Assembly: GCA_020348985.1 (NCBI GenBank)
Contig: CP070761.1
Coordinates: 1,567,465 to 1,631,464 of the forward strand
Reading direction: 5' to 3'
Source of the DNA: Candidatus Thorarchaeota archaeon
Lineage (GTDB): Archaea; Asgardarchaeota; Thorarchaeia; Thorarchaeales; Thorarchaeaceae
DNA: 64,000 bases
Made by a program: the position numbers and the translations under genes. Of the stretch, positions 1-52,104 are shown piece by piece. The stretch's first letter is position 1. Each line of letters begins with the position of its first letter. The notes beneath the pieces were generated by a model, which was not told the DNA's origin, ran no database searches, and saw nothing but the letters and a program-made list of their open reading frames with translations.

Positions 1-442
1 CTCTAAGGAAGTTCGCATTGGCAACAAGCGATTCGTAATTGTTCTCCCAGAACTCCTCTGGAATTACACCCACACTCATGAGCAGCTTGGTTTGCTCAAT
101 CCCAATCTTCTTGGCCTCCAATGTTAAGTCTCTAACGGAATGGGTGCCTAGACCGCAGCCAGCGCACAGCGATAATAGATTTGAGCTGACTAGTATCATG
201 TCAGCGGATTGAATGAGGGAATTGTGTAGGCGTGATGTCTTGATGGCATCGCACTCTTCACAATTGGGGAGATCTCTTCTTGTGCTGTAATGCTTCACAG
301 CTTCTTCAAGAACATCATTGATGCGTCTCGAGTCACTTGAGAGTTCCTTCAAAAGATTCTTGGTGCTGGCGGAGACTGTAGTATGTAGATGCACTCTCGG
401 TTCACGAGACCCATTATAGTCATGTGAGTCCATAACATCCAT
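1..442 (-). CDS. Ribbon-helix-helix (CopG/Arc/MetJ-like) DNA-binding protein with C-terminal domain; 3'-truncated by window edge
   Basis: Manual translation (not in ORF track): MDVMDSHDYNGSREPRVHLHTTVSASTKNLLKELSSDSRRINDVLEEAVKHY...CEEC...; strand-helix-helix pattern typical of RHH; frame stays open to position 1. Confidence 0.65.
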   Translation of the reverse strand, partial: MDVMDSHDYNGSREPRVHLHTTVSASTKNLLKELSSDSRRINDVLEEAVKHYSTRRDLPNCEECDAIKTSRLHNSLIQSADMILVSSNLLSLCAGCGLGTHSVRDLTLEAKKIGIEQTKLLMSVGVIPEEFWENNYESLVANANFLR

Positions 443-581
443 GAACAAACCCACCGGTTCGTGTTCAAGACATCTATTCCAGTTATAGATTCGTGAACAT
501 AAGCATTCCGAAGCAGTGAGGTTTGTTGAATCTTTGAACAAGGTCATGACGAAGTGTCTTTCTCATGTGCACCCTTGTTCA
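442..581. promoter_or_regulatory. Cluster of five TGAACA/TGTTCA boxes upstream of the RHH gene (putative operator)
   Basis: TGAACA at 442, 494, 535; TGTTCA at 462, 576; same hexamer recurs at 5228-5274. Confidence 0.55.
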
Positions 582-2201
582 TTCGTGAAGGTGGTCGCCC
601 ATGAGAGTCCCACGAATGAAGAATTTCTCAAATTCACCGTATGAGGCTAATTCTACATATCGAGCAGAATCCGCAATTTCTTCTGCTATCTCCCTATGAG
701 CTATTGACAACAGCATCTTCTTTGCACCGTCTCCGGCTGCGTTGCCAACTTGAACAACACGATTCGGATCAATGGCGGGCAAGAGTCCAATGGAGACTGC
801 GCTTTCGGGATTGATGTATGTCCCAAATGCTCCAGCTAGATAGACAGCGTCGATTTCCGTCAATGCAACATCTGCCTCTCTAATGAGGATGTGAGTGCCT
901 GCTAGGATTGCGCTCTTGGCAAGTTGGACTTGACGAACATCCTTTTGCGTGAACAATATTCGAGACTCAGAGTCATGCTCCCCCTTCTCGACAAGGACAT
1001 AGGACGCCACCGACGGACCTACATGAATGATTCGATTCGACTCCTGCAATCTTCCGTCTTCGTCAAGCAAGCTATGCTTGAGTAGTTCTGAGACAATATC
1101 TACTATTCCCGATCCGCATATTCCTCTGGGTACACCGCCGCCGATTACTTCAATCTCGGCAGGCTGAGAAGGATCATCGATTGTAACATGTTCAATCGCA
1201 CCTTCCTGACCTCTCATTCCCTGAGATATCGTAGCCCCTTCGAATGCAGATCCGGCTGCAGCTGAACAGCAAAAGAGCTCACCGTATTTGGACAACACAA
1301 TCTCACCATTGGTTCCAATATCAGCACCGAGAACAACATCTTCAGACTGGTCGAGCCTCTGCGAAAGAATGAACGCTACGGTGTCCCCTCCCACAAATCC
1401 AGCGATATTCGGTGAGCAATAGACTTGGGCGGCCGAAACTTGGCCAAGCCCAACAACCTTTGAATCGGCGTTGAATGAATGTTTCATTGCTGGTTCATAT
1501 GGGGCAAAGCCTAATGACGAAGTGTCTATTCCCAAGAATAGGTGATGCATTGCTGTGTTACCAACTACGGAGATTCGGCCAACTGCTTCAGAGGAAACCT
1601 GGCCTGCTTCGCATACTTCCTTAATCAGTCCGTCGATCGCTTGAACGACCAAGGACTGAAGACTGGCTGCACCCTCATCATTCTGTAAGGCATGAGTGAT
1701 TCTTGTGACTACGTCCTCACCATATTCAATTTGAGGGTTGAGCATAGAAGCGCATCCAATCTGTGCCCCGTCCTTCAAGCCAAGAAGATAGGCAACAATA
1801 GTAGTAGTGCCAAGGTCAATGGCAACGCCATATTCACCGTCGATGGGCGCGTCAATAGCAATCTCATCGGTTGTGATTAGATGTTCAGCAAGAATCTTAC
1901 TTCGACCTTCAACACGTGTCAGAATCGCTCTACAATGGGCCTTTGCTGTGTGTTCACAAGCAAGACGAACTCCGCGTCTGATATCTTCGCCTTTGAGGTG
2001 AAGCGAGTCGATCTTGGTCGGCGATGGTTTGGGCTTAAGTATGATTCTACACTTGCCACATGTTCCTTTGCCTCCGCACTCAGCCGGTATATGCAAACCC
2101 ATTCTTCTTGCTGCCTCTAGAAAAGAAGTATTGGAGTCCAAAAGGATTCGTAGCCCTGAAGGCTCGAATACTACTAACCACCTCTCTTCCAAGAATGTCA
2201 C
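579..2201 (-). CDS. Reductive activator of corrinoid proteins (RACo/RamA-like; N-terminal 2Fe-2S + ASKHA/DUF4445 ATPase)
   Basis: CGGKGTCGKC...RLAC 2Fe-2S motif; AIDLGTTT, DIGTNGE, GSAFEG, GICGSG, LAGAFG, GNAAG ASKHA motifs; lies in a methyltransferase cluster. Confidence 0.9.
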   Translation of the reverse strand: MTFLEERWLVVFEPSGLRILLDSNTSFLEAARRMGLHIPAECGGKGTCGKCRIILKPKPSPTKIDSLHLKGEDIRRGVRLACEHTAKAHCRAILTRVEGRSKILAEHLITTDEIAIDAPIDGEYGVAIDLGTTTIVAYLLGLKDGAQIGCASMLNPQIEYGEDVVTRITHALQNDEGAASLQSLVVQAIDGLIKEVCEAGQVSSEAVGRISVVGNTAMHHLFLGIDTSSLGFAPYEPAMKHSFNADSKVVGLGQVSAAQVYCSPNIAGFVGGDTVAFILSQRLDQSEDVVLGADIGTNGEIVLSKYGELFCCSAAAGSAFEGATISQGMRGQEGAIEHVTIDDPSQPAEIEVIGGGVPRGICGSGIVDIVSELLKHSLLDEDGRLQESNRIIHVGPSVASYVLVEKGEHDSESRILFTQKDVRQVQLAKSAILAGTHILIREADVALTEIDAVYLAGAFGTYINPESAVSIGLLPAIDPNRVVQVGNAAGDGAKKMLLSIAHREIAEEIADSARYVELASYGEFEKFFIRGTLMGDHLHE

Positions 2202-3107
2202 CTAACTTATCCTGTAACGAGGATGTGTCTTGTCAATGGGGGTTCGAGTTTCAAGCAAAATACCCGATAGCGCTACATCAATCATTGCAATAGACGGGTA
2301 GACAATTGGTGCATCTTGTACCGGGCCGTACAGGACAAAGTCAGCCCCTAAGACAACAGGCATCAGATTGGATCCGACGAAAGCAGGCTTTTTCGCTTCA
2401 TCTCCAAACTTCGGAACCAACCCCCTCCAAGTACTAACAGCATTGTGTGCGCCGCAGCCAACAGGGTATCCTTGTTTTTCTTTGATAGTTTGTAGTGCTT
2501 TACAAGCTAGGCCTAGAGTGAGTAGGTCTGCAACACCTGTGTCGATGAGCAAGTTTGTGAAACCAGAATTCTTTGCTTTTTTTATTAGGGAATCAGCCAA
2601 TTCAACTCTCTTCGTGGCTGATGCCATGGCTTCTGACGAGAAAGTGAGAAGCACTACATTCTTGAGGCCAGTATCCTGGAACCGGGAATAGACTTCGCCT
2701 GAAGATTCAGGAGTCAGGGAATTCAAAACCACTCTATGAAGAAGACCAGCATCGCTTGCAGCATTCACACCGGCAAGATTGACTGCTGTTTGGTCTGATC
2801 CATCAATCATGAGTGGAGAATCTGTCATGTCGGCTAGCAATCGGATGTATCTGTCGGCTGCCTCTGGAGATATCGCAACGACATCTAACATGCTGGGCAA
2901 TCCGGTCTTTTCAGAAGTCTCCTCCAAATTCTGGAGGACATCCTCTGTTCCCGCTACATCAATTCTGCCCGATTTGGGATCTAAAACGAGTCTGTCACCT
3001 GTGTAGAAAATTGACCCTACTAGGACTGTGGGATTGACACCAGGTTGTCCACCTATCTTTACTCCACCGATTTCAAGTATCTTTTGTTCGACTTGATATT
3101 CGAACAA
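2202..3107 (-). CDS. MtrH/MtgA-like methylcorrinoid:tetrahydropterin methyltransferase (MT2)
   Basis: N-terminus FEYQVEQKILEIGGVKIGGQPGVNPTVLVGSIFY and GYPVGCGAHNA, GADFVLYGP match the MtrH family; TTG start at 3107 follows a GGAGGTGA RBS; no other mtr genes in the window. Confidence 0.85.
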   Translation of the reverse strand: MFEYQVEQKILEIGGVKIGGQPGVNPTVLVGSIFYTGDRLVLDPKSGRIDVAGTEDVLQNLEETSEKTGLPSMLDVVAISPEAADRYIRLLADMTDSPLMIDGSDQTAVNLAGVNAASDAGLLHRVVLNSLTPESSGEVYSRFQDTGLKNVVLLTFSSEAMASATKRVELADSLIKKAKNSGFTNLLIDTGVADLLTLGLACKALQTIKEKQGYPVGCGAHNAVSTWRGLVPKFGDEAKKPAFVGSNLMPVVLGADFVLYGPVQDAPIVYPSIAMIDVALSGILLETRTPIDKTHPRYRIS

Positions 3108-3156
3108 GGGTCTCACCTCCAATAATGAGCGTCGACGCGACCCCACGTTAGATTGA

Positions 3157-4536
3157 TTAATAGAGGAATCTCACACCGAGGTCCGCAACCTCTTGCTTCA
3201 CTCTTTCATATATCTCGTAGCACTCCTTTGAAGGTCTACCGGTCACAGGATCACAGCACTCTTGGAACGTTTTGCCCCTTGGTGGGTCACCAACCCTGTC
3301 AGCAAATCTCGGGATGATTCTCTTTACAATCTCGTTTGCATCATCCCTTGTGATACCAGCAGACGCGTAGGCAACCTCCGAGGCGAACATTGGCTCAATT
3401 GGTGTCAGATAATCTGTGTACTTCCCTCTGGCAACGCCTCCGGTCTCAATTGACCCTCCTGAAGATATTCCGCCAATGAATTCTGCAGCAAACTCGTAAA
3501 GCACCATCTCGGTACAGGGGCCCGCAGCAGTGTAGTTGTAATATAGCGCTGGCACCTGTGTATTCCTTGACACAGCCTGCAGGTATTGGCTGGCCACCCA
3601 GATTAGCTCTGGTGTGGAACTTGAGGTATACTTGAGGTGGATCGGGAAGCACAGTGTCCAGGATGCGCCAAGGGTCATTATTGCCATTATGTGAAAAGCC
3701 GTGGACGTGATTGCTGTTCCTTCTGCTCCCCCTGCAAAGCCACCATAGATGGGACCATGAATCCCTGCGATTGGAACATTCAGTGATTGTAGAAGTGCTG
3801 CACGATTCAGCAAATCAAAATCTGTCTTTAGCTCAGCAAGCTGAGCAATCATGTATCCGTCTGTCTTCCGTAGTCCAAAATCGGGATGCAAACCTGAAGC
3901 AAGGGCGATAGCGGACTCTGCGGTCCCAATAGCATTCATGATGGGTAGTCCAGGTCGCCCAGCTCTTCTCAAAGCCTCCCGCCCCAGAACCACAGTTCGT
4001 ATACTACCCTCGATTTCGAGTGGTGATTTCGCACGAATGCTCATATCGCCGACATTAGCCAGGCAGGGAGTGGTAATCGCGTTTGCAATCGGTATCAGTT
4101 CTGCATAGTTTTGAACAAGTTTCATGAACACGTTCTCACTAGACACAGTTACCCCCCCGGCCCCTGCGAAAATCCATGGTTTCTCCTTTGACTCTGGCTT
4201 CCTTGGTAGCAGAGTTCGTTGTTCCATACCCTCGCCCAGAAGTGCATGGTCAAAGGATGTGTTGATGCTGTCACGAACCTCCTTCTCTGTGAACGAGATT
4301 ACTCGTTCAGTGTCCTTGTTGAATACTCCGATCTCGACGATAAGGTCAAAAGCTGCTTTGAATACTGAATCTGCTAGCCCGTCATCAGAGGAAATCACGA
4401 TGTTAGGATCGTACGTGACATCATATTCTTTAACAAGCTCTTGGACTCGCGGAGCAAAGATTCGCAAATCGTAGTCCTTTTCCAAGCAGGGCTTTCCTTC
4501 AAGAGACCTTCGAGTAATCTCCAGTATGTTCAGCAT
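3157..4536 (-). CDS. Monomethylamine methyltransferase MtmB-family homolog lacking pyrrolysine
   Basis: MtmB-like motifs (DDGLADSVFKAA, AGRPGL, QLAELKTD, GGFAGGAEG, AGPCTEM, PPRGKTFQEC); no in-frame TAG; the Pyl-equivalent position reads Met/Asn. Confidence 0.85.
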   Translation of the reverse strand: MLNILEITRRSLEGKPCLEKDYDLRIFAPRVQELVKEYDVTYDPNIVISSDDGLADSVFKAAFDLIVEIGVFNKDTERVISFTEKEVRDSINTSFDHALLGEGMEQRTLLPRKPESKEKPWIFAGAGGVTVSSENVFMKLVQNYAELIPIANAITTPCLANVGDMSIRAKSPLEIEGSIRTVVLGREALRRAGRPGLPIMNAIGTAESAIALASGLHPDFGLRKTDGYMIAQLAELKTDFDLLNRAALLQSLNVPIAGIHGPIYGGFAGGAEGTAITSTAFHIMAIMTLGASWTLCFPIHLKYTSSSTPELIWVASQYLQAVSRNTQVPALYYNYTAAGPCTEMVLYEFAAEFIGGISSGGSIETGGVARGKYTDYLTPIEPMFASEVAYASAGITRDDANEIVKRIIPRFADRVGDPPRGKTFQECCDPVTGRPSKECYEIYERVKQEVADLGVRFLY

Positions 4537-4540
4537 TCAC

Positions 4541-5188
4541 TCATCCCTTCCTTTCCTCAATCAGTCTAATTGCTTCACGCACAGCCTCCGGCGCAGTCTC
4601 GGCAAAGCCATCAGCACCAATTTCATCAGCCCATTCCTGGTTAGTTGGGCCGCCGCCAACCATGACAATGAACCTGTCGCGTTTTCCAGTCTCCTGCAGA
4701 TAGTCGATGACATCCTTTTGGCCGCCAAGAGTAGAAGTCATGAGAGCTGAGATTGCGATTATGTCGGCATCGATTTTCTCCGCCTCTTCCACGAACCTTG
4801 ATGTTGCAACATCGCAGCCGAGGTCGGTCACCGCAAAACCATTAGCAACAAGCATGGCCTTGAGGATGTTCTTCCCAATCTCGTGAATATCACCACGAAC
4901 CGTTCCAACCACGACTCTTCCTGCTACAGGTACTTCTTCTTTTGGCATCTTTGGTAGAATCACATCCAAAGCCGCCATCATAGCTTCTCCGGAAAGCATG
5001 AGATTTGTGAGGAATATCTCCATTCGCTCGAACTGCTCACCAACATGTTTGGCCCCTTCGGAAACACCCTTCTCAAGAGCCACCAAAGGACTGACGCCAG
5101 CTTCAAGAGCAGCTTCTGCGTATTGGGTGACTTTCTCAGCATCTCCTTCAATAATGGCTTCTTTCAGTTTGGCAATGTCTTCTGACAT
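4541..5188 (-). CDS. Methyltransferase cognate corrinoid protein (MtmC/MttC-like)
   Basis: GTVRGDIHEIGKNI (DxHxxG), SALMTST, MVGGGP B12-binding motifs plus cap domain; start refined to MSEDIAKL at 5188. Confidence 0.92.
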   Translation of the reverse strand: MSEDIAKLKEAIIEGDAEKVTQYAEAALEAGVSPLVALEKGVSEGAKHVGEQFERMEIFLTNLMLSGEAMMAALDVILPKMPKEEVPVAGRVVVGTVRGDIHEIGKNILKAMLVANGFAVTDLGCDVATSRFVEEAEKIDADIIAISALMTSTLGGQKDVIDYLQETGKRDRFIVMVGGGPTNQEWADEIGADGFAETAPEAVREAIRLIEERKG

Positions 5189-5227
5189 GTTCCTGACATC
5201 CATCGAGATAATGAGTAGACATCTGGA

Positions 5228-5293
5228 TGAACAGACACAAAAGCACTCCCAACACCTGTGAACACTCTTGAACAAACTCGTTCTTCAAGAGTG
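5228..5293. promoter_or_regulatory. Putative operator upstream of the corrinoid/methyltransferase operon
   Basis: TGAACA at 5228, 5259, 5269; perfect 10-bp inverted repeat CACTCTTGAA(5263-5272)-N11-TTCAAGAGTG(5284-5293). Confidence 0.55.
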
Positions 5294-5324: not shown

Positions 5325-7160
5325 TTACCTAATATCCTTCAATCCGAGTCTCTCGACGGTTTCATCTGTGGGAATTCCATTCTTGTCCCAGCCGCGCAGC
5401 TCATAGAATCTGTCAAGACAGGCCTCAAAATCCGCTCTATCAACGAAAGAACGCATTCCCTCAGCAGGGCCAGAAGCAACTGGCTGCCAGAATCGTGGAG
5501 GGAGTTCATCATCCTTTCTTGAGACACCTTCTCTTACGTTGAATAGCCGAGTAAGGGTCTCTACTCTCTCTGCAAAGACCTTCACACTTTCCTCATCGTA
5601 TTCAAGTCCTGTGGCACCATTAAGCAAGCGAATCTTCTGATTATGGCTTAGAGGCAAGTGGTACGTAAAATGACATACAACAAGTGAATCTGTCAAGTGT
5701 TTCTCGTCCCTAGCCTTTGTCATGGATTCGACCACATCTATCGCTGACGAAATCGGCTTGTCAGTTGTTGATGGCCAACCTCTAAGGTGACTTGCACCTA
5801 CTTCAGCAGTTGCATAGGAAAGACCCATCCCCTTCTTTCCTCGAGGGTCCCAAGCAGCCACAGATAGTCCCTTTACATGGACGGCAAGCTCTTCACTGCC
5901 TTTCCCAATTCTTTCAGCTGCTCTCCTCACACCGTTGGCCAAAATGTCACCAATGCCTTCTCTTCCGGCAATCATCTGGAGCAGTTCCATTGCCGCCGCA
6001 CCATCGCCGAATCTCATGGAAAAGCCAAGATCATCTTCCGTTATGATGCCCCTTTCGAATGCCTCCATCGCAAACGCCAGAACTGAACCTGCCGCTATTG
6101 TGTCGATGCCGAGATCATCGCAAAGGTGATTGAGTTGGAGAAGGATATACGGATCGCTTATCCCCAGATTGCCACTCAACATAGCCTCAGTTTCATATTC
6201 GGAAGTTACCTCCACAGCCATCTTTGGAGCTCTCGGATCAGCTACCCTGTGAGCATGCGTACACCTCATTATGCACTGGGGACATGACAAGTGCTGACCA
6301 GAATACCATTCATGCATAGCTTCAGGTTGCACCTTCTCGTTCTCTTCGAAAAAGCTTGTCTGCCAATTTCGTGTGGGAAACTGGCCACGTTCGTTGGAGA
6401 CCTCAATAAGAAAAGATGTTCCATACCTCCTGAAGTCAAAATTCCATGCATCAGTGGCCATATCCTTCCATGAAGTAGTCACTTCACGATTGACTTCACT
6501 GATTGCATCGGAATCATATGCTTCAATCATACCAGAACCTCTGACCACAACTGCTTTGAGATTCTTTGACCCCATCACAGCTCCAGGACCACCTCGGCCT
6601 GTTTGATGAGCGAGTTCGGAGCCGGCCGCAGCAATCAGCGACAGATTCTCCCCTGCTGGACCTATGACATACACTATGTGATCGTCACCAAATCGCTCGC
6701 GTAGAATCCTGGTTGAATCGTGAATCCCTCTGCCCCAAAGGTCTTCTGCACTCTCTAGACGCAGAGAGTCATCTTCAAGAACAAGCACAGTAGGCTTGTC
6801 TGCCTTGCCTTTGACGCACAATACATCGTAGCCTGATTTCTTTATTTCCCTTCCCAGGGCGTGTCCACAATGTGAATCTAGGTAGAGCCCCGTGAGAGGT
6901 GACTTGGTCACTAACGTCCACCTGGCTACGCTAGGACCATTTAGCCCTTGCATAGGTCCTGTGAGGAAGAACAGAACATTCTCTGGCCTAAGGGGGTCGA
7001 CTCCTGCTTCCAGTTCTCTATACAGTAGGTATGCTCCAAGTCCCTTTCCGCCCAGGAATTGCTCGTAGACACTTGTATCAAGGCTCTCCTCATTTGTGGA
7101 TCCTGTTGACAAATCAACCCAAAGGATTTTGCCAGTCCAACATTCATGTGTCATGTCCAA
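5325..7160 (-). CDS. aor: Tungsten-containing aldehyde:ferredoxin oxidoreductase family protein
   Basis: FLGGKGLG, KSPLTG, IGPAGEN, GRGGPGAVMGSKNLKA, CxxCxxxC, EYET, CDDLGIDT, YELRGWD motifs. Confidence 0.92.
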   Translation of the reverse strand: MDMTHECWTGKILWVDLSTGSTNEESLDTSVYEQFLGGKGLGAYLLYRELEAGVDPLRPENVLFFLTGPMQGLNGPSVARWTLVTKSPLTGLYLDSHCGHALGREIKKSGYDVLCVKGKADKPTVLVLEDDSLRLESAEDLWGRGIHDSTRILRERFGDDHIVYVIGPAGENLSLIAAAGSELAHQTGRGGPGAVMGSKNLKAVVVRGSGMIEAYDSDAISEVNREVTTSWKDMATDAWNFDFRRYGTSFLIEVSNERGQFPTRNWQTSFFEENEKVQPEAMHEWYSGQHLSCPQCIMRCTHAHRVADPRAPKMAVEVTSEYETEAMLSGNLGISDPYILLQLNHLCDDLGIDTIAAGSVLAFAMEAFERGIITEDDLGFSMRFGDGAAAMELLQMIAGREGIGDILANGVRRAAERIGKGSEELAVHVKGLSVAAWDPRGKKGMGLSYATAEVGASHLRGWPSTTDKPISSAIDVVESMTKARDEKHLTDSLVVCHFTYHLPLSHNQKIRLLNGATGLEYDEESVKVFAERVETLTRLFNVREGVSRKDDELPPRFWQPVASGPAEGMRSFVDRADFEACLDRFYELRGWDKNGIPTDETVERLGLKDIR

Positions 7161-7507: not shown

Positions 7508-9481
7508 ATGAGAATGGCTGACTCTGTTTCATCAATTCTGTCGCGTAGAACCCAGGAAGGAGAAACCTACGAGCCTATAGGCAGACTAGCAGGCATTGGT
7601 TCTCTACTTGGAATACTTGCAGCAGCAATTGGGCTGCTGATGAGTGCTGGAACGTCATTGCTTCCAATCCCGTCCATTGGCGCACTGATTCTGAGGAACC
7701 CCGATCACTACTTTTGGTCAGCAGTGTTCATGGGTGTGCTGGGAGTAAGTGCCTTGTTGCAGGCTTTTGGGTCTAAAGGTCTCAGAAAATACTTGGACTC
7801 AGGATATACGAACATTCTGTTTGCAATTGCAGGGATAGCTCTGGTGACAGCCATCTTCGCAGTACTAGGCGGAATTACACTGTATCGGCCACGCCAAGTA
7901 GTAGACTATGTCGTAAATCTGATGTCATTGGGAGCCTTCTTTGCGATTACGTGGCAACTGATTTCAATCACTTATGTTGATTCAACCGATTCGTGGATAG
8001 GATTCCTCGCAGGCATTCTTAATGCTATGTTCGTCCCATTTCTGGCACTTGGACAAGGGCTCAGCTCAACATTCACTTTCCTGGCGTACTTCGTTCTGTT
8101 GCTGGGACAACTATTTGCTCTACTATTCTGGTGGTCGCCAATGAGTATTGTCAGAGAATATGCTCGAAGCACGTCAAAGGCAAAGTTCGCCTTTGGTTTG
8201 GCGGGGCTTTTCTCATTCTTGTATGCTATTGTCCCGATTCTGATAGGACCGTTGTCGATCATAGAGGGCAGTGAAGTCTGGACGCCTTGGAGCACGATGC
8301 TCGACGAAACGCTGTTTGTCACTGACCCTGTCCTTATCTTCGGCCTAATGTCGGTCATGCTATTTTGGGTCATGCTCGGACCACGTCTTGGTGCGAGAGA
8401 ACTCAAGGTCGCACATGTTGGTGAAGACATAGTCAAAGGTGGCCCAAAGTGGTTTATGGCACTCCTTGCTATGATCGGCATTTTCGCGGCATCTCAGGCA
8501 GGGTCCATGGTGGCTGCCGTTGTGCCTAGCTATGGGCTGGCTCTCGCATTGAGTCCTGCTGCGGTTACGTTCATGATGGGCGCCATATATGCAGGGCGAA
8601 CAGACATCATAACCGGACTTCCTCTGGTTGTGCTCGGAGTGATGTTCTTGGTGCATCCGAATGTGCTGTCCATGTTCGTCATTGTCCCGCTCGTGCTTGT
8701 GATAATCACACAAGTCTTCTTGACCGTTGAAACCAGAATCAGAGGCTTCACCGGATTCTCACAGGGAGCTTTGACAGTCATTGCCACCGTCATCGCATCG
8801 GGAATCTTCATCCTATTCCTTTTGGGCGGGTTTGGAAGTGGGCCTGCGGCTATGTGGCCTGTTAACAGATGGTACCCAGTCGCTTTGATTCCTGGGATCT
8901 CTGTTCAAGTTCAGATGGCTACTATTATCACCTTGCCCTTCCTTGCACTGCTGATACGGAATGTATCTCTGGTTGGCTATGCCCATGGTCGAGGAATGGC
9001 GGGGTCTGACTCCCTGGGTGCTATGAGCATTCTATTTGCTTTTCTGATTCCCATGATTGGTGATCCGACTGCCACTGTTACACACAAGGCACTGACCGCG
9101 GCATCAATCCTGCTAGCACTCTATGCCATCAGTTTCGTGCTTGTTTTATCCCTGAATCTAAACCTTGCAGGTGAGGTAGAGGACACGGGCAACCCTTACG
9201 AAGGGATGTTGATCAGAATGTCTGCTATTGTGGGTATTGCGTTTGGTTCGATTGTTGCCATAATCACAATGGCCACATTCTCTCAGTTCTACGTACGGCC
9301 GGCTGACGCAGCACTTGTGATTACACTACTTGTAACGCTAGTCGTTGGACTAGAGGTTCTTGGTCTGGCTACCTGGCTCATTACGGGTGTAAGACTAGGA
9401 ATGCTGAGAAGCGGCTGGAAGTACGTTTCCGCCGAGGAAGCAGCACGAAGGGCAGAGATGATAGTACCACTGGCAGAATAG
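7508..9481 (+). CDS. Large polytopic membrane protein, unknown function
   Basis: 657-aa ORF made almost entirely of hydrophobic helices; GAGG RBS; no family motif recognised. Confidence 0.75.
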   Translation: MRMADSVSSILSRRTQEGETYEPIGRLAGIGSLLGILAAAIGLLMSAGTSLLPIPSIGALILRNPDHYFWSAVFMGVLGVSALLQAFGSKGLRKYLDSGYTNILFAIAGIALVTAIFAVLGGITLYRPRQVVDYVVNLMSLGAFFAITWQLISITYVDSTDSWIGFLAGILNAMFVPFLALGQGLSSTFTFLAYFVLLLGQLFALLFWWSPMSIVREYARSTSKAKFAFGLAGLFSFLYAIVPILIGPLSIIEGSEVWTPWSTMLDETLFVTDPVLIFGLMSVMLFWVMLGPRLGARELKVAHVGEDIVKGGPKWFMALLAMIGIFAASQAGSMVAAVVPSYGLALALSPAAVTFMMGAIYAGRTDIITGLPLVVLGVMFLVHPNVLSMFVIVPLVLVIITQVFLTVETRIRGFTGFSQGALTVIATVIASGIFILFLLGGFGSGPAAMWPVNRWYPVALIPGISVQVQMATIITLPFLALLIRNVSLVGYAHGRGMAGSDSLGAMSILFAFLIPMIGDPTATVTHKALTAASILLALYAISFVLVLSLNLNLAGEVEDTGNPYEGMLIRMSAIVGIAFGSIVAIITMATFSQFYVRPADAALVITLLVTLVVGLEVLGLATWLITGVRLGMLRSGWKYVSAEEAARRAEMIVPLAE

Positions 9482-11155: not shown

Positions 11156-12073
11156 ATGTCAACAAAGGACTTGTTTACGAAGTACACTCAGCTGTACCAG
11201 AAGGGGCGTGCTAGAGAGATTGTTCCTGAAGGACCCTTCGTACGTCAACTCACCGACGTTCCAAGGCAAGGACTCGACCTTGCGCTCTTCTTCAAGGCAA
11301 AGAGAGTGAAGAACACAAGGCAGATTCACATCGGCGACCCAGTACCACCCGTAGTTGCCAGAGAAGAGGGTTTCTTGGAAACAGATGATAATACCTTCCT
11401 CAGCCGGACACTATTGTCAGAATTCAGGACGGTGGATTATCTCAAGGCAGTGATATCGGCTGGCAAAAGACTTGAGGAGACCCGCGAGAGAGTCCAGTTT
11501 CTCAAAACCTGTCAAAGGATTATCGATGTTCTCCTCAGAAAAGCAAGAAACGTGGTGCACCTGGGCGATTTCGAGCCTTTTAGATTTGACAGGCGTGTGT
11601 TTACCATAGAGGAGTACCTGAGCAAGAGAACCAAACTCGACAAGGTGGCAATTGAAGCCGCTTCAATCTCCTTTCATGTAGCTGAGCCCGACTACATTCT
11701 GATGCCTACTGGGGAGATCATAGTCTTCAACGACACATATAGCGTGCCTCATGGTGTGTTCTACTTTGCAGGTGGAATAGGATACACATTCGACCAAGCC
11801 GAGGGTGCCGCTAGCGAGGAAAGGGTCTTCAGGTCTCAAGAAGACCTGAGTCTGCACGGAATTGACAGCGCTTACCTTGAGGGCATGATGCTCAGTGTAA
11901 CTGAGGATTTCCAGACCAGAGTTCACTCCATAATCTATGCAGATGTATGGAAGAAGGTCAAGTCACGTCCTATCGGAGTTAACTTTGGAGAGCAACTTCT
12001 CATTAAGGCAGACCCTGGTAGCGAGATTTGGATGGGTGTATTCGAGATATACCTCGCCCCGCCTAGAACATGA
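11156..12073 (+). CDS. Hypothetical soluble protein
   Basis: 305-aa ORF with RBS (GAAGGA); no motif recognised. Confidence 0.7.
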   Translation: MSTKDLFTKYTQLYQKGRAREIVPEGPFVRQLTDVPRQGLDLALFFKAKRVKNTRQIHIGDPVPPVVAREEGFLETDDNTFLSRTLLSEFRTVDYLKAVISAGKRLEETRERVQFLKTCQRIIDVLLRKARNVVHLGDFEPFRFDRRVFTIEEYLSKRTKLDKVAIEAASISFHVAEPDYILMPTGEIIVFNDTYSVPHGVFYFAGGIGYTFDQAEGAASEERVFRSQEDLSLHGIDSAYLEGMMLSVTEDFQTRVHSIIYADVWKKVKSRPIGVNFGEQLLIKADPGSEIWMGVFEIYLAPPRT

Positions 12074-38694: not shown

Positions 38695-41600
38695 TCATGA
38701 GCTGTCCAGCAACTGGTCGACGATGTCCATCCTCATCTTGTATCCAGGTTTCCGCTTCTTCCTCCCGACCACAACAATGACTGCGACGAATCCTATACCT
38801 CCAAGCAGAAGCGCAAGCATGAAGTAGTCAGGCGGAGCAACGTCGATTGCGATTAGCTGGCCAGAAACTCCGAACAGCGAAAGGTGAGTGACTTGTGCCC
38901 ATATACAGCCTGCATAACTCTCACCATATATCTCAACATTTGTGGTGTTCTGACCGAGTGAGATTACCCAGTCCAGGTCCTCTGAGAGCTTGATCCATTG
39001 TTCATCTTCAGTATCGTAGTAGTAGATGCTCAATGAGGTTTCGTTTATGTCGCCCAAGTCACCTAGCTGTCCATCATTAGTAAGGTCAAGGTCAGAGACT
39101 CTGTAATAGATTTGAATCAGAGCAGACTCGAAGACATCTTGAGCTGTATCGTATAGAGTGATAGTCACATCCAGATACTTGTGCAAGGACACTTCACCCT
39201 CAACTAGACCCGTGGAATATACCAACTCGTGTGGTGTTGTGGATGCATCATACTTCACTATCTGAACACTTGGTCTAGCAAGTCCACTTAGTTGGACCAA
39301 GAGAGTAGCATCTAGTGTTTTTAGAGTGTCAATCTCGTTAATCAAGAAACTATAATGATACGTTTCATTATCAGTGATTACGGACTTTTGATAGTCCAAC
39401 GCTATCATATTGGGTAGTATCGTGAAGTTTCTACCTCTTAGGATTTGCAAAACTGAGTAGACATCCTCTGGGAATGCTTGAGAGAGCATTACTACTGTCT
39501 GGGGATTTGACCAAACACCATATCTCGTAGCTATCTCATGAGAATCGGGTTCCATCATATCGGTCAGAACACTGCCAGTATCACCTAGAAGATCGTAGAC
39601 CAATCCTCCTACTGTAGAACTCTCAGACTCCGGCCTGCCAATAAGGACAATGTATTGTGAGTCACTATAGAGCGAAGTTAGGTCACCAATTGAAACAATG
39701 GTTACGTCTGCATAATCTCTGAGTTTTTCTGCAAACAGGATTGTGTCATTGTAGTCCTCTGGGTCATGTGCGAGAATTATCGGACCCCTCCAGGGGCTAA
39801 ATGTGTCAGGATCCTCATTATCAGGAACACCATCGAAATCTGAATCAACATTCCATGGATTGCTGCCCCATTCCAACTCGACACCATCCAGAATACCATC
39901 CCCGTCTGTATCATTGTTCAATGCATCTAACCAATAGGCGACCTCAAGACTGTCTGATACGCCATCACTATCAGAATCACTGTTTAGGGGATTGGTGCCA
40001 ATGAACCATTCATAACTGTCACTTAGTCCATCACTATCGCTATCTCCCCCTAGAGGATTCGTACTCCTGCTGTATTCATCTCCATCCAGAGAAAGGTCAC
40101 CATCAGAATCTGCATGAAGTAGACTAGTGTTGTACTGGTACTCTAAAGCATCACTTGCGCCATCATAGTCGCTGTCAGCGCTGAGAGGATTTGAATTAAG
40201 CAGAAACTCCTCTAAGTCTGATAGAGTATCAAAATCTGAATCCGCCATTGCTGGGTTACTCCCAAAGGTCATTTCTAACCCATCACCCAGGCTGTCACCA
40301 TCTGAATCCCAGAGTGTCAAGCTAGATCCAGATGATGATTGCATGTAAGAAGCACTTAGTGTCGATGGTGCGAGGTGCGGACTAAACGTAGGCGGGATAT
40401 ATGTTTCACCGGGATTGTTTGCTTTCCACCATTCTTGGTGGTCAGAAACGCCATCCAAATCTGTATCTGAAGTGCTAGGATTGGACCCAAGTGAGAATTC
40501 AAGGAAATCATCCAGACCATCTAGGTCCGAGTCATTCATCAAATGGTTGCTGTGCACTCTGAAGGTTTCTTGTCCGTGAGTGAAGTTGACAGAGATAACC
40601 CAACCATCGATTTCCTGAATGTTTGTCAATCCATCGTTGTCCCAATCTGGATTCGTATCTAGTAGTAGTTCAGACGACAAAGTAACATTTTGCGAGAACT
40701 TCCAAATCCTTGAGGTTGATGGAGTACCAAGATCAATCCAATCCAAGACATAGATACTCTTGTCAGGAGCTACCGCCAACTGATGGGTCTCACTACCAAG
40801 AACATATGTTCCAGTTGTGAAATTCGTTATTCCATTTCCGTAGAACCGAAATGCAGTATCCTCAACTCCATTCGGATAGAATTTCTGGACACACATTCCA
40901 TCTGAGAGTTCACCTAGAACATACACGTAACCATCTGAGTCCACATCGACATCAAGAATTGAAACGTAGTTCTCAGACAGTGTGCCTAGGAATGCGCCAT
41001 CCGAGAGTCTCATCTTGATGACTCTATCCGGTTTACTATAGGAGAAATGCCTATCACATAGATAGACAATACCGTATTTCTCGTCTACTGCCATGCTTGT
41101 AATCCAATCAGTTTCATCATCTGCTGGACCTCTATTGCCATACGTCGCCAAAACAGAACCATCAGAGCCGTATTTTCGAAATCCACCTATCTGGTCATCC
41201 CCTGTATCTCTCACTGCTGCATAGATAACTCCATCATCACCAAAATCAAGATCCGTTATGTTCTTGTTGAGTATTGGACTCCAGCTCCCAGGATTCGTTA
41301 TTGTACCATTCAAGTTGAATCTGAAAATAGGACTGCTGAATAGCGGACTAACCTGAGTGTAAAGCCAGTCATTTGAGTCATCTACAGCCATTGCCACAAG
41401 TCGAGCGCCAGAAGGTAGAAAGGTCATGTTGTTGAAGACTGACTCTTGTGGAAGAGTAACCCGCGTGAGATTTGAATCATACTTCCGAATTGTGTTGTTA
41501 CCACTAACTGAGTCTAGTATTCCGTTTGCATATACATAGCCATACTCGTCCACACAAATGTCGCTTATCTTGTTGTTAGTTCCGTCCATTGTCCAGTCAA

Positions 41601-44600
41601 CGAACTTGCCCTCATAGTATACTCCTGATCCGTACCAAACATATGCTGAATCAAGAATCCCATCTCCATTGGTGTCATTTGATCTTGGGTTCGTATTACT
41701 TTCGTACTCTGTAAAGTCATCAAGACCATCTCCATCTGTTTCATTAAGGAGCGGATTCGAAGTCACATGAGTGGAGAAGGGAAGAGAAGTATTACCCATG
41801 TAATCGAAGCTTATAATCCAACCAGTGATTTCTAGATAGTCGCTTAACCCATCTTGATCTGTATCGATATTATTTGGATCTGTGCCACAGACTAGTTCGA
41901 ATTTGTCGTTCAACTTGTCATTGTCTGTATCGATACTTGCTGGATCAGTTCCAATTTCAATCTCATATTTATCATTGAGTCCATCTGAGTCGGTGTCGTA
42001 TCTCCATATGTTAGAGACTCCCATAGATGCTTCTCTGGTGTTGTTAAGTCCATCAACATCAAAGTCGTTCGCAATAAGACCCCATTTGAGAAACTCGTCA
42101 AAGGAAGCAGGAAACACATCAAAGTAGATTTGAGTCAGGAAAGGGGAATACGCCGAGGAATAACTAGGAAGAACTGAGATAGTTGGATCATAATGCCAAC
42201 AATCCCAAGTGTCGAGCCATTCGTGATACCAGACACTCCAAGTTTTGTAGAAGGAGTACAATCCGATTGTAACTGGGTAATTTGCCATAGCTATGGGTGC
42301 GCCAATGCTCTGAGTCTGAGACCACTCTTGTTGAATCCAAGCAGGATTACTTTGCGTAGCAGTCCCTAAATATGTCCAAATCGGATCCAGATCTGGCCAT
42401 GTCGGCATGTACGTCTGAATATTAGTTGTGTTGTGAGCAAAATTAAACGCCTGCCAATAGAAGTGATTTAGATCGCTAGTGGCAATCCAAAAATGAGGCA
42501 TGCACCAACTATCCAGAAAATACGTGTTGAGATATGTGCCATATGCACTTATTCGTCCTAGTAGTCTACATGTTAAGAGAATTCCGTCACCAGCCGTCAG
42601 ACCATTGTTCTCGAAATCCATGAAGGTTGGATCTATGTCCAGAATTCTGCTAGACGGCCACATCGCAACAATTTGGTGAGGGCGTCCATAAATAGCGTTG
42701 ATGAAGAACTCCTTGATTGCATCACTCACACCGATATTGTCCTTTCCACACCATCCTAGGATCTCATCGATCAACATGAAAATTCCAGCCAAACCAAACG
42801 TGAAGAACGTAGCCCAGGTGGTCAACAATGGTGCGATGATAACATCCCAAAGAAAGGTAACAATACCCCATATTGCTCCATACTCTTGTCCGCCGGCTCC
42901 ACCGATAGCATCTGCGATTTCCCAAGCGGCCCAGATTGTTAATCCAAGAGCGATTGCAGCAACAACTATCTCAATAATAACATCGAATTTGCCAATCTTA
43001 CTCACCCAACCTGACGCTTTGCTCGCACCTTTTGCCACCTTCGCCATTTGATGTAGAGTTCTCACTCTATGGAATTTCCTACCAGCTTCTGTGAATGAAT
43101 CGAAAATGCGCTGCAAACCGCGGAAATAAGAAGGAACATCTGGCAGAAGCAAGAAGGACTCAATACCTAAATCCACCCATTGTCCAACATTTTGCGAGAC
43201 GAATTCCATGTCTGATATTCGATCTATTGGGAATCCTCGTGGGGTTCCGTCGACTACTGTCGCACTCCGTTCAGTAGAAAACCACATCAGCGTCATTGTG
43301 ACTATCCAATACGTGACTTCATCATCTAGACCCCAACTAACAATATGGTCAACGATTTCAGTTATAGAAAGTGCTTCATAGCTGGTCGTGTTATAGTAAT
43401 TCATCTTCAGTGTCTTCATGACGGATGGGGCAAGGCTTGTCAGATCTATACTACTGTGACCATCCGTTCCGAATGAAACACCTGACATGTCTACAACTCT
43501 TGAATGGTCCTCAATAATCACAGTAATAGGAAGAATCATGTCCTGAGATATTGAACTCAATGCAGAGGGTAACATATCACTACCCAGCGAAGATAACGCG
43601 TCGAATTGAGATTGGAATGTCCTTACATCGCTTTCAACGGTTATATTGTTGTCCATGAGAAGTGGTTGCAGGTCTGAAACTGTGTTTGAAGAGTTTTTCA
43701 TGTAATAATAGTCAAACAGCAATGAAGCTCCAATCGTCATGTCAGTATTTGTGCTATTATAGAAGATACCAATTTCTGAACTTGTGCTCTCTTCCAATTT
43801 AAGTCCAGTAAATTTGAACGGTTCAGTGTAGGTGACCAGTTCAATCAGATTAGGAATCGGCTCAAGAGACTCTATTTCAAAGATAGATAATAGCGCAATA
43901 TCAGGAGTTGAAACTAGATTGCCCCTTCCATCCATTGCAACGTAGTTCCCCAAATAATCGGTCAAATAGCATGCCGGCCACCAGGCAATCCTTTGGTTGA
44001 ACGTTTCTCTCTCGCCGATTGTAGAGCTGTTGAAAAAGAGTGTACCATTGTCTGAAACTGATAGATAATTCCCATTAATCAGTTTTAGAGCAACCTCACT
44101 TTCTGATAGATAACACAACTGAAGAGCACCTTGAATTCCCTCACTAGCTGTAACTGATGCAACACCTTCGTTACCGACACTAAGATACTTCCAATTCTGC
44201 CTGAACAAGAGAGCATTGGGGATGAAGTCTGTATAGCCATGAACGCTCCACACTAATTCGGTCTGGAATGTGACACTCGTTGAAGCTAGACCTGGGTAGT
44301 AAACAATACCACTGAATGCTACAACTTCGCCATTGTCAATTACTGGAGAAAGACGGAGCCGCATTCCAGAAGAGGTTGGGACGATTCCTTGCTCTTGTAG
44401 AGCATCCTCACTTGGGATTGTGTCAGTAATAATCTCAAGATAGGGGATGAGGATTATGTCGTCTTTGGAATTGTCCAAGTCCGTCATTGTACTCTCGTTG
44501 TCCCAGTCTGGCCAATCCCAGGTCTGGTATAGTAACCTGAGATGCAATGGGTCCTCGGGTACAATCTGGAACTCCGCATAGAGCGGCATTGAGTTCGTGT

Positions 44601-45192
44601 TTACTACAATTGAAAACTTATCATTCACCTCTGAATACGCAAACGGTGAAACATCAAATGCATCGTTAACACCGTCGCCATCATTGTCAAAGTCCCATCC
44701 ATTCTTAATTCCATCATTGTCAGAATCCACATGTACTCCATCTGGAACGCCGTCACAGTCTGTATCAACTTCAAATGAATCACAAAGGCCATCATCATTT
44801 GAATCGGGATTGCGGGGGTCCAAGTCATTGTATACCTCAAAATCGTCAGTTAGGAGATCAACATCCGTATCATTGCTTTGTGGATTAGTGCCTATGACAG
44901 CTTCAACAAGGTCAGGTAATGAATCTGCATCAGAATCGGTAAGATTAGCAGCCGGAGTGACCTCAAGCAATGATATTACAAGTTCTTTGAGAGAACCTGG
45001 CGTTCGAGGAGGATCACCTTCAGCGACCCTTCTTACAAGTTGATTTGGATTCGTGATTACAGGGGGAGAATCACGGGAATCCCGGACTGGAATGTATTGA
45101 TTGTCTGTGGCCCGCTTGATATCACATCCAACGAACAAAAATATGAAAATCAAGCATGCAATGGCGAGCTTTAATCTTCTCAGGTCTCTCAC
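38695..45192 (-). CDS. Giant multidomain surface protein A (Ca-binding DxDxDG repeats, fascin-like insert, hydrophobic helical region, NHL propeller, GPS-like motif, TM anchor)
   Basis: 2165-aa ORF; signal peptide ending FVGC; many D-x-D-x-D-G-L-x-D-x-x-E repeats; NHL-like DICVDEYGYVY/MAVDEKYGIVY; VTHLSLF then TM. Confidence 0.85.
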   Translation of the reverse strand: MRDLRRLKLAIACLIFIFLFVGCDIKRATDNQYIPVRDSRDSPPVITNPNQLVRRVAEGDPPRTPGSLKELVISLLEVTPAANLTDSDADSLPDLVEAVIGTNPQSNDTDVDLLTDDFEVYNDLDPRNPDSNDDGLCDSFEVDTDCDGVPDGVHVDSDNDGIKNGWDFDNDGDGVNDAFDVSPFAYSEVNDKFSIVVNTNSMPLYAEFQIVPEDPLHLRLLYQTWDWPDWDNESTMTDLDNSKDDIILIPYLEIITDTIPSEDALQEQGIVPTSSGMRLRLSPVIDNGEVVAFSGIVYYPGLASTSVTFQTELVWSVHGYTDFIPNALLFRQNWKYLSVGNEGVASVTASEGIQGALQLCYLSESEVALKLINGNYLSVSDNGTLFFNSSTIGERETFNQRIAWWPACYLTDYLGNYVAMDGRGNLVSTPDIALLSIFEIESLEPIPNLIELVTYTEPFKFTGLKLEESTSSEIGIFYNSTNTDMTIGASLLFDYYYMKNSSNTVSDLQPLLMDNNITVESDVRTFQSQFDALSSLGSDMLPSALSSISQDMILPITVIIEDHSRVVDMSGVSFGTDGHSSIDLTSLAPSVMKTLKMNYYNTTSYEALSITEIVDHIVSWGLDDEVTYWIVTMTLMWFSTERSATVVDGTPRGFPIDRISDMEFVSQNVGQWVDLGIESFLLLPDVPSYFRGLQRIFDSFTEAGRKFHRVRTLHQMAKVAKGASKASGWVSKIGKFDVIIEIVVAAIALGLTIWAAWEIADAIGGAGGQEYGAIWGIVTFLWDVIIAPLLTTWATFFTFGLAGIFMLIDEILGWCGKDNIGVSDAIKEFFINAIYGRPHQIVAMWPSSRILDIDPTFMDFENNGLTAGDGILLTCRLLGRISAYGTYLNTYFLDSWCMPHFWIATSDLNHFYWQAFNFAHNTTNIQTYMPTWPDLDPIWTYLGTATQSNPAWIQQEWSQTQSIGAPIAMANYPVTIGLYSFYKTWSVWYHEWLDTWDCWHYDPTISVLPSYSSAYSPFLTQIYFDVFPASFDEFLKWGLIANDFDVDGLNNTREASMGVSNIWRYDTDSDGLNDKYEIEIGTDPASIDTDNDKLNDKFELVCGTDPNNIDTDQDGLSDYLEITGWIISFDYMGNTSLPFSTHVTSNPLLNETDGDGLDDFTEYESNTNPRSNDTNGDGILDSAYVWYGSGVYYEGKFVDWTMDGTNNKISDICVDEYGYVYANGILDSVSGNNTIRKYDSNLTRVTLPQESVFNNMTFLPSGARLVAMAVDDSNDWLYTQVSPLFSSPIFRFNLNGTITNPGSWSPILNKNITDLDFGDDGVIYAAVRDTGDDQIGGFRKYGSDGSVLATYGNRGPADDETDWITSMAVDEKYGIVYLCDRHFSYSKPDRVIKMRLSDGAFLGTLSENYVSILDVDVDSDGYVYVLGELSDGMCVQKFYPNGVEDTAFRFYGNGITNFTTGTYVLGSETHQLAVAPDKSIYVLDWIDLGTPSTSRIWKFSQNVTLSSELLLDTNPDWDNDGLTNIQEIDGWVISVNFTHGQETFRVHSNHLMNDSDLDGLDDFLEFSLGSNPSTSDTDLDGVSDHQEWWKANNPGETYIPPTFSPHLAPSTLSASYMQSSSGSSLTLWDSDGDSLGDGLEMTFGSNPAMADSDFDTLSDLEEFLLNSNPLSADSDYDGASDALEYQYNTSLLHADSDGDLSLDGDEYSRSTNPLGGDSDSDGLSDSYEWFIGTNPLNSDSDSDGVSDSLEVAYWLDALNNDTDGDGILDGVELEWGSNPWNVDSDFDGVPDNEDPDTFSPWRGPIILAHDPEDYNDTILFAEKLRDYADVTIVSIGDLTSLYSDSQYIVLIGRPESESSTVGGLVYDLLGDTGSVLTDMMEPDSHEIATRYGVWSNPQTVVMLSQAFPEDVYSVLQILRGRNFTILPNMIALDYQKSVITDNETYHYSFLINEIDTLKTLDATLLVQLSGLARPSVQIVKYDASTTPHELVYSTGLVEGEVSLHKYLDVTITLYDTAQDVFESALIQIYYRVSDLDLTNDGQLGDLGDINETSLSIYYYDTEDEQWIKLSEDLDWVISLGQNTTNVEIYGESYAGCIWAQVTHLSLFGVSGQLIAIDVAPPDYFMLALLLGGIGFVAVIVVVGRKKRKPGYKMRMDIVDQLLDSS

Positions 45193-51826: not shown

Positions 51827-52104
51827 ATCGCTCCACCTTTGCCACGCCGCAGGGATAATGCATCCAAAGAGCTCCGCCTCAATTGGCAAAGGGCCTTTTA
51901 TCTTCTCTGAGGGAAACTAACCCGATTGCAATTCGCAAGCAGACGGTCCAAATGCATTGCAACCTGAAACTTCCATCGCTTGTGACGCAGGTATTCCAGA
52001 ACCTATCAGAAGTCCGGCAGCTCGACTGCGTTGAGCATCATCCTGAAAAGAAGAACCGCTAGTCAACGGTTTCCACCATCTGGTCTTCGGGAGATGAAGG
52101 ACAC

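Follow-up and report, generated by a model that had tools for sequence, protein, structure and literature searches.

Which methyl donor could an Asgard archaeon that is not a methanogen use with an MtmB-superfamily methyltransferase lacking pyrrolysine (Pyl)? The question is raised by an operon at the beginning of a 64,000-nucleotide (nt) stretch of a Candidatus Thorarchaeota genome (contig CP070761.1, positions 1,567,465 to 1,631,464), hereafter called the window, to which all positions refer unless the contig is named. From its sequence, we consider it likely that the operon encodes a cobalamin-dependent three-component methyl-transfer system with an imported, N-methylated donor. An initial annotation of the same stretch had proposed a complete methyl-transfer module around a Pyl-free MtmB homolog, feeding the Wood–Ljungdahl pathway from a substrate not yet defined for this family.

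The operon and its pyrrolysine-free MtmB homolog

Five genes on the minus strand were separated by gaps of 4, 10, 0 and 31 nt and were therefore regarded as one operon. The leading gene (4541–5203, minus) encoded the cognate corrinoid protein, similar to MtmC, MtbC and MtgC, with the domains PF02310 (B12-binding) and PF02607 (B12-binding_2) and a TIGR02370 score of 216.8 bits (cut-off 215.3). Its longest open reading frame (ORF) spanned 4541–5275, with the His-on motif DIHEIG (DxHxxG) at residue 129, although the true start is probably the ATG at 5203 or 5188. The MtmB homolog followed (3157–4536, minus), a Pyl-free methyltransferase (MT1) of 459 amino acids (aa) whose PF05369 match (319.5 bits) covered residues 3–454 and thus amounted to full-length family homology; it was the only MtmB-family copy in the genome. 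Next came a stand-alone MtrH-family protein (2202–3146, minus; PF02007, 234 bits), predicted to be the methyl-corrinoid:pterin methyltransferase (MT2). It scored below both the mtrH and the MtgA equivalog cut-offs of NCBIfam, and in the PDB it matched MtrH (8z9u_B, 230 bits) better than MtgA (6sj8, 168 bits) and the MtrH of the Mtr complex (9qtp, 135 bits). The fourth gene (579–2201, minus) encoded a RACo-type reductive corrinoid-protein activase, consisting of an N-terminal 2Fe-2S ferredoxin (Cys42, Cys48, Cys51 and Cys82) and an ASKHA ATPase. The Pfam search recovered Fer2, Raco_middle (PF17651, 183 bits), RACo_C_ter (PF14574, 264 bits) and PF00111 in this protein, which matched the RACo structure 3zyy with 308 bits. 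The last gene, a candidate regulator, ran off the start of the window (1–547, minus), so that the window contained the 5' part of its 412-aa ORF. Since scores were far above family cut-offs and the gene pair recurred in many genomes, this pattern is not due to chance. The four co-oriented components named in the initial annotation were thus all found on the minus strand, tightly packed.

In the MtmB homolog, residue 193 is the first of the motif GRPGLPIMNAIG. In a HMMER alignment with MtmB of Methanosarcina barkeri (1L2Q/1NTH; E = 1e-67, residues 9–457), Met200, encoded by the ATG at 3937–3939 (minus), was opposite Pyl202 (X in the aligned sequence), and the ORF contained no in-frame stop. The methionine codon in place of an amber codon, as annotated initially, was confirmed, and the stop-free ORF leaves no place for a Pyl codon elsewhere in the alignment. 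E229, E259 and Q260 of 1L2Q, which we take to surround Pyl (the roles of these residues are likewise presumed), aligned with M229, I259 and H260 of the window protein. Residues shared invariantly with MtmB1 included R194, D226, G265-G266, H300, T342, M344 and E348 (window numbering).

A HMMER scan for MtmB homologs over 1.84 billion representatives matched 989 clusters (50% identity) at E ≤ 0.001. Most of these were about 455–465 aa long and, given this length, appear to be uninterrupted by a readthrough stop. The best 120 matches of a word-indexed search, which reached down to 45% identity, all carried GR.G.P[IFLV]MN and formed one clade with the window protein in the tree, the ‘GRPGLPIMN’ clade, whose named members belonged to Asgard archaea, Bathyarchaeia and Thermoplasmatota. 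The closest homologs were 77–80% identical and labelled Thorarchaeota, Hermodarchaeota, Sifarchaeia or Promethearchaeota; from these names the host was read as an Asgard archaeon, and it is probably Thorarchaeia-like. NCBI names the orthologs ‘monomethylamine:corrinoid methyltransferase’.

For comparison with Pyl enzymes, a scan of genome contigs returned 73 loci, of which 16 were translated. Fourteen were unbroken apart from one TAG near position 202 and came from Methanomassiliicoccales, Desulfobacterales, Dehalococcoidales and gut Firmicutes/Eggerthellaceae; of the other two, one had a TAG but was broken by further stops and one (Hadarchaeota) had no TAG. Nine positions were invariant in 113 clade members and differed from the residues invariant in the 14 TAG-containing MtmBs. 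The window clade had A at position 126 (P in the Pyl enzymes), I at 148 (E), T at 155 (V), P at 157 (G), M at 200 (Pyl), N at 201 (G), A at 206 (L), G at 273 (E) and S at 362 (E). The comparison also took in a group of Methanosarcinaceae homologs without Pyl, from Methanohalobium, Methanococcoides methylutens, Methanolobus and Methanohalophilus, MtqB itself not being among the sequences compared. Those of Methanococcoides, Methanohalobium and Methanolobus were 25–33% identical to the window protein. This group had Met at the Pyl site in 86% of its members and retained P126, E148, G157 and G201 as in the Pyl enzymes, with which it grouped in the tree, far from the window clade. On these alignments, the window protein appears to represent a separate, uncharacterised large clade with its own invariant residues.

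MtmB homologs were present in 47 of 301 sampled Asgard-phylum genomes, none of which had a Pyl-type gene. A TAG counted in one Asgard homolog was rejected as a Pyl codon, being the stop codon at position 459. Orthologs with at least 65% identity were confined to the family of the host, where 14 of 76 genomes had one; the two genomes of its genus had none. The nearest non-Asgard relatives, about 60% identical, were Bathyarchaeia-like, which suggests gene transfer between host-type Asgard archaea and Bathyarchaeia-like groups.

The 47-nt element, its regulon and its conservation

A putative promoter/operator element of 47 nt was located at 5228–5274 (minus), 24 nt upstream of the corrinoid-protein ATG at 5203. 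Its consensus on the plus strand is TGAACA-N13-TCCCAACA-N4-TGWWCA-N4-TGAACA, i.e. three TGWWCA boxes and a TCCCAACA core. The strict three-box form occurred four times in the 3.16-Mb genome (0.007 expected), and a position-weighted genome scan retrieved exactly five copies, set apart by a clear score gap. All five were at one locus (contig 1555796–1572738; window −11668 to 5274), each facing the gene downstream of it. Copy 1 preceded a class-III aminotransferase unit, copy 2 an M28 peptidase, copy 3 a CN hydrolase, copy 4 the SBP5 transporter operon and copy 5 the corrinoid-protein operon. We regard the five units as one predicted regulon. The 20 kb before the window encoded an ArgE/DapE-family M20 deacylase, two large M28 peptidases, the class-III aminotransferase, the CN-hydrolase amidase, a BPL_N/DJ-1-like protein and an Opp-type ABC importer composed of SBP5, fused permeases and two ATPases. 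The best solved match of the ‘aminotransferase’ (L002:6968–8272, minus) was Pyrococcus 7vno, labelled as a hypothetical 4-aminobutyrate aminotransferase. The relatives of that protein are presumably amino-acid racemases, and the co-regulated enzyme could be a racemase instead.

Comparison of the neighbourhoods in eight related genomes gave seven orthologous loci. All seven carried, on one strand, genes for a BPL_N-like protein, SBP5, permease, ATPase D, ATPase F, the corrinoid protein and the MtmB homolog, followed by a convergent regulator-like ORF and the M20 deacylase. The element was found in each of them directly 5' of the corrinoid protein gene and also before the SBP5 and M28/BPL_N genes. 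As both element and gene order were kept in seven loci, the linkage is conserved and not an accident of one genome, and it appears to tie the methyltransferase pair to the importer and hydrolase genes. No MttB-family gene was present in the Thorarchaeia-like loci. MtrH and RACo did not adjoin the MtmB homolog in the eight relatives examined. The proposal of a complete module therefore stands as to its components (MT1, corrinoid protein, MtrH-type MT2 and activase); it does not stand as to a self-contained module, since the operon is one of five units of the regulon and two of its components lie away from the MtmB homolog in relatives. One related genome had a second pair of MtmB homolog and corrinoid protein (65% and 59% identity), which was accompanied by neither the element nor the transporter nor the regulator.

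The regulator-like ORF probably encodes 377 aa from the ATG at 442 (412 aa in the longest form) and continues to contig position 1566776. It had no Pfam match even at E ≤ 5 and no NCBIfam match. In seven relatives it adjoined the MtmB homolog, with 42–49% identity. In all eight orthologs, an N-terminal RVHLHTT(I/V)S strand led into helices, an arrangement resembling a ribbon-helix-helix, and a CxxC motif came next. An AF2 model (pLDDT 71) showed two alpha/beta modules, for which Foldseek returned de novo designs on top and weak domain-level matches to H-NOX, Bet3/TRAPP and YslB. The model is compatible with a V4R-like sensor but is no proof of one; the ORF is a candidate regulator for the 47-nt element.

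The context was different in 80 metagenome loci of the clade (40–80% identity). Of the 63 eligible loci, 43 had the corrinoid protein gene immediately 5' of the MtmB homolog. Neighbours were counted wherever one flank extended to 4 kb or more, which applied to 43 loci; the count for MttB took in the whole fetched locus, whereas the other genes were counted within 6 kb of the MtmB homolog. MttB-family genes were found in 18 of these 43 loci, class-III aminotransferases in nine, OppD/F-like ATPases in seven, aldehyde:ferredoxin oxidoreductase (AOR) in four (near distant clade members), MtrH in two, RACo in one and the regulator-like ORF in none. MtrH and/or RACo adjoined in the closest non-Asgard relatives (~60% identity), several of them on short contigs. 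A Pfam tally of the three ORFs on each side of the MtmB homolog gave B12-binding (46), MTTB (16), Aminotran_3 (9), HAD hydrolases (8), PAS/GAF kinases (7), DUF835 (7), aldehyde dehydrogenase (5), saccharopine dehydrogenase (4), RACo (4) and MtrH (4). MttB was the commonest non-corrinoid neighbour family, with 5 upstream and 11 downstream ORFs. The Opp/peptidase context thus appears to be specific to the Thorarchaeia-like orthologs, and elsewhere the recurrent partner is an MttB-family enzyme. Its presence beside the pair in 18 of 43 loci suggests that two methylamine-methyltransferase superfamilies act on one pathway or share one corrinoid protein.

Host C1 metabolism and the methyl donor

The host genome was a single contig of 3.157 Mb with a completeness rated at 86%, a caveat that applies to the absences. 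The best match to the C-terminal PylS model reached 20.5 bits (cut-off 178; pylBCD were not searched), and ARAGORN found no CUA tRNA, though only 21 tRNAs were detected. McrA had no match in the genome search. Mer was found with 452 bits, above its equivalog cut-off of 348.7, as were Mch (427 bits), Ftr (176 bits), one CdhC/acetyl-CoA synthase (ACS; 216 bits) and FTHFS (756 bits), but not MTHFR. The genome thus has a pterin C1 pathway, and on its content the Wood–Ljungdahl sink proposed initially holds up. It also encoded four MtrH paralogs, including that of the window, one non-Pyl MttB homolog (no internal stop) about 1.5 Mb from the operon, and, by tblastn, three corrinoid proteins. The gene for a second corrinoid protein was directly beside another MtrH paralog (contig 471475–473000). 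Since the RACo of the window was the only one in the genome (tblastn), it may serve several corrinoid systems.

We hypothesize that the Pyl-free MT1 would transfer the methyl group of an N-methylated substrate to the Co(I) corrinoid of the protein encoded upstream of it, and that the MtrH-family MT2 would pass it on, most likely to tetrahydromethanopterin (H4MPT). Methyl-H4MPT could then be oxidised via Mer, Mch and Ftr or be condensed to acetyl-CoA by carbon monoxide dehydrogenase/ACS. The activase would use ATP and its 2Fe-2S cluster to bring the corrinoid back to Co(I) whenever it is accidentally oxidised. As the H4MPT methyl branch and ACS are both encoded, methyl-H4MPT feeding the Wood–Ljungdahl pathway is the likely sink. 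Because the 47-nt element is shared with the Opp-type importer, the M20/M28 peptidases, the amidase and the aminotransferase, the donor is probably an imported N-methylated amino-acid-, peptide- or amide-like compound. It would not be monomethylamine, and probably not tetramethylammonium or choline either.

Systems of this kind have been described. MtqB, the non-Pyl MtmB homolog of Methanococcoides methylutens Q3c, demethylates tetramethylammonium and choline, with cob(I)alamin methylation rates of 37 and 42 nmol/min/mg, respectively, and weak activity with monomethylamine (11 nmol/min/mg) (Kashyap et al. 2026, PMC13044021). The authors place its clade close to the Pyl MtmBs and report further non-Pyl MtmBs across Asgard archaea, the function of which they give as unknown (PMC13044021). 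Like MtqB, the window protein is a non-Pyl PF05369 member of about 459 aa whose gene immediately follows that of its corrinoid protein. In contrast to the MtqB/MtqC system with its MtbA/MtqA (coenzyme M), the MT2 of the window is of the MtrH type (pterin), its host lacks Mcr, and the operon shares its regulation with an Opp-type importer and peptidases. Since the Methanococcoides homologs found were only 25–33% identical (MtqB not being compared), this comparison does not justify assigning the MtqB substrates to the window protein. A substrate can thus no longer be called undefined for the superfamily as a whole, as the initial annotation had it, whereas the statement remains apt for the uncharacterised window clade.

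MtmB1 of M. barkeri could be aligned over its full length, but the window protein has Met200 with neither UAG nor Pyl, its host has no PylS, and the acceptor side is of the MtrH type and not MtbA. Likewise, in the systems MtgB/MtgC/MtgA of Desulfitobacterium hafniense and MtoB/MtoC/MtoA of Methermicoccus shengliensis, an MT1 that lacks Pyl or does not act on amines is combined with a corrinoid protein and with an MtrH-family MT2 that stands alone and feeds a Wood–Ljungdahl type pathway; a RACo/RamA-type activase is needed. Methyl groups are passed to tetrahydrofolate (H4F) by MtgA and, as proposed, to H4MPT by MtoA (PMC8630106). Their MT1s, however, come from other superfamilies (MttB; MtoB/MtvB), and the MtrH of the window, at 168 bits, is below the MtgA equivalog cut-off. 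In Asgard archaea, non-Pyl MttB was reported beside MtrH in Atabeyarchaeia and Freyarchaeia (Valentin-Alvarado et al., PMC11291895), and MtmB was listed for Sifarchaeia, where the only in-frame UAG reported is in MtbB (Sun et al., PMC9723677). For Asgard archaea, non-methanogenic methylotrophy has been proposed from Pyl-free methylamine-methyltransferase homologs beside MtrH and corrinoid proteins; the two studies cover MttB homologs or simply list MtmB, and neither describes the window clade, its signature or a transporter/peptidase regulon.

Several points weigh against an imported N-methylated donor whose methyl group is passed to H4MPT. The M20, class-III aminotransferase, CN-hydrolase and SBP5 proteins matched at family level only and assignment to a specific substrate failed, which makes the donor class a guess. 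SBP5-type importers are not restricted to peptides, and the best PDB matches of this one were NikA-like. A non-quaternary N-methyl group would have to be activated without Pyl. Clade members that do not belong to the Thorarchaeia-like family are linked to MttB and not to the regulator, and we count them as not linked to Opp transporters either; different members may thus use different substrates. The MtmB homolog has neither MtrH nor RACo beside it in the eight relatives, and the acceptor could be H4F instead of H4MPT, given the presence of FTHFS. Finally, we infer every function of the operon from sequence.

Among the alternatives, an MtqB-type tetramethylammonium/choline:corrinoid methyltransferase coupled to H4MPT instead of coenzyme M is unlikely. 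It would belong to the same superfamily, its corrinoid protein gene would adjoin as it does upstream of MtqB (PMC13044021), Met occupies the Pyl position in most Methanosarcinaceae non-Pyl homologs, including those of Methanococcoides methylutens, and demethylation of tetramethylammonium and choline is the sole activity shown so far for a non-Pyl MtmB homolog. These homologs, however, share only 31–33% identity with the window protein, are on the Pyl side of the tree and keep the P126, E148, G157 and G201 that the window clade has replaced by A, I, P and N, and the regulon contains an Opp-type importer and peptidases instead of a BCCT or choline-type transporter. Since an MttB-family enzyme is the recurrent partner outside the Thorarchaeia-like orthologs, stepwise demethylation has to be considered as well, in which the window enzyme would act after an MttB-family enzyme and remove the second or third methyl group from a tertiary or secondary amine of the dimethylglycine/sarcosine type, sharing the corrinoid protein. 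The MttB-family genes of the metagenome loci and the non-Pyl MttB homolog of the host would fit such a sequence of reactions, but the latter is encoded about 1.5 Mb away and the Thorarchaeia-like loci have none. To our knowledge, Pyl-free corrinoid-dependent demethylation of non-quaternary amines has no biochemical precedent, and we consider this order of events improbable to a similar degree.

A genuine monomethylamine methyltransferase that works without Pyl is suggested by the NCBI name of the orthologs and by the weak monomethylamine activity of MtqB. It is highly improbable in view of the alignment, in which the window protein has Met, Met, Ile and His at the positions of Pyl, E229, E259 and Q260 and lacks another three Glu that do not vary among Pyl enzymes; moreover, the regulon has no ammonium or methylamine transporter. 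We give equally little credence to a donor that is not an amine (methyl-thiol, methoxy or halomethane), or to a system running in the methylating direction. Nothing in the sequence fixes the donor atom, and in ‘Ca. Formimonas warabiya’, growth on dichloromethane induced a non-Pyl MtmB-superfamily protein more strongly than any other protein (PMC9768040). The characterised members of the superfamily, however, all act on N-methyl groups, and the co-regulated genes encode amide/peptide hydrolases and an aminotransferase. The imported N-methylated compound thus remains the donor that we favour.

Neighbouring genes and significance of the locus

An AOR gene (5325–7160, minus; PF01314 and PF02730) was adjacent to the corrinoid-protein unit and co-oriented with it, but is probably not part of it. 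It was rejected as a member of the module, being located upstream of the 47-nt element, having eight paralogs elsewhere (nine copies in the genome) and being non-adjacent in eight relatives. Divergent from the AOR gene, a 657-aa ORF (7508–9481, plus) had no Pfam or NCBIfam match even at E ≤ 5, and a 305-aa ORF (11156–12073, plus) had no family match. Two adjacent giant ORFs (38695–45192, minus, 2165 aa; 45293–51889, minus, 2198 aa) were located in a region where the GC content dropped to 43%. Rfam and ARAGORN scans of the window gave no matches.

The system is of a known kind and non-Pyl MtmB homologs of Asgard archaea are already in print, so the locus is not categorically new. New are the distinct signature of the clade, the conserved regulon with importer and amide/peptide hydrolases, and the N-methylated substrate that these imply. 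More speculatively, and in our estimate doubtful, the GRPGLPIMN clade could be a new class of Pyl-free corrinoid methyltransferases for non-quaternary N-methyl amines from detrital peptides or amino acids. Its substrates could then include N-methyl amino acids, N-epsilon-methyl-lysine, or the dimethylglycine and sarcosine left by MttB-type enzymes. If true, this would reveal an unrecognised source of methyl groups for the Wood–Ljungdahl pathway in sediment Asgard archaea, Bathyarchaeia and Thermoplasmatota, together with a new regulator of the ribbon-helix-helix type and a dedicated Opp-type importer.

Among the non-Pyl members of the 989 matching clusters of MtmB homologs, MtqB is the only one for which a substrate has been demonstrated. 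The window clade occurs widely in uncultured archaea of sediments (Asgard archaea, Bathyarchaeia and Thermoplasmatota), which are thought to live on detrital protein and to use the Wood–Ljungdahl pathway. In the Thorarchaeia-like loci the substrate is unusually accessible to study, as the regulon ties the methyltransferase to an ABC importer, hydrolases and a regulator. The locus could therefore lead to a new methylotrophic substrate, and could show whether Pyl-free activation of N-methyl groups extends beyond quaternary amines.

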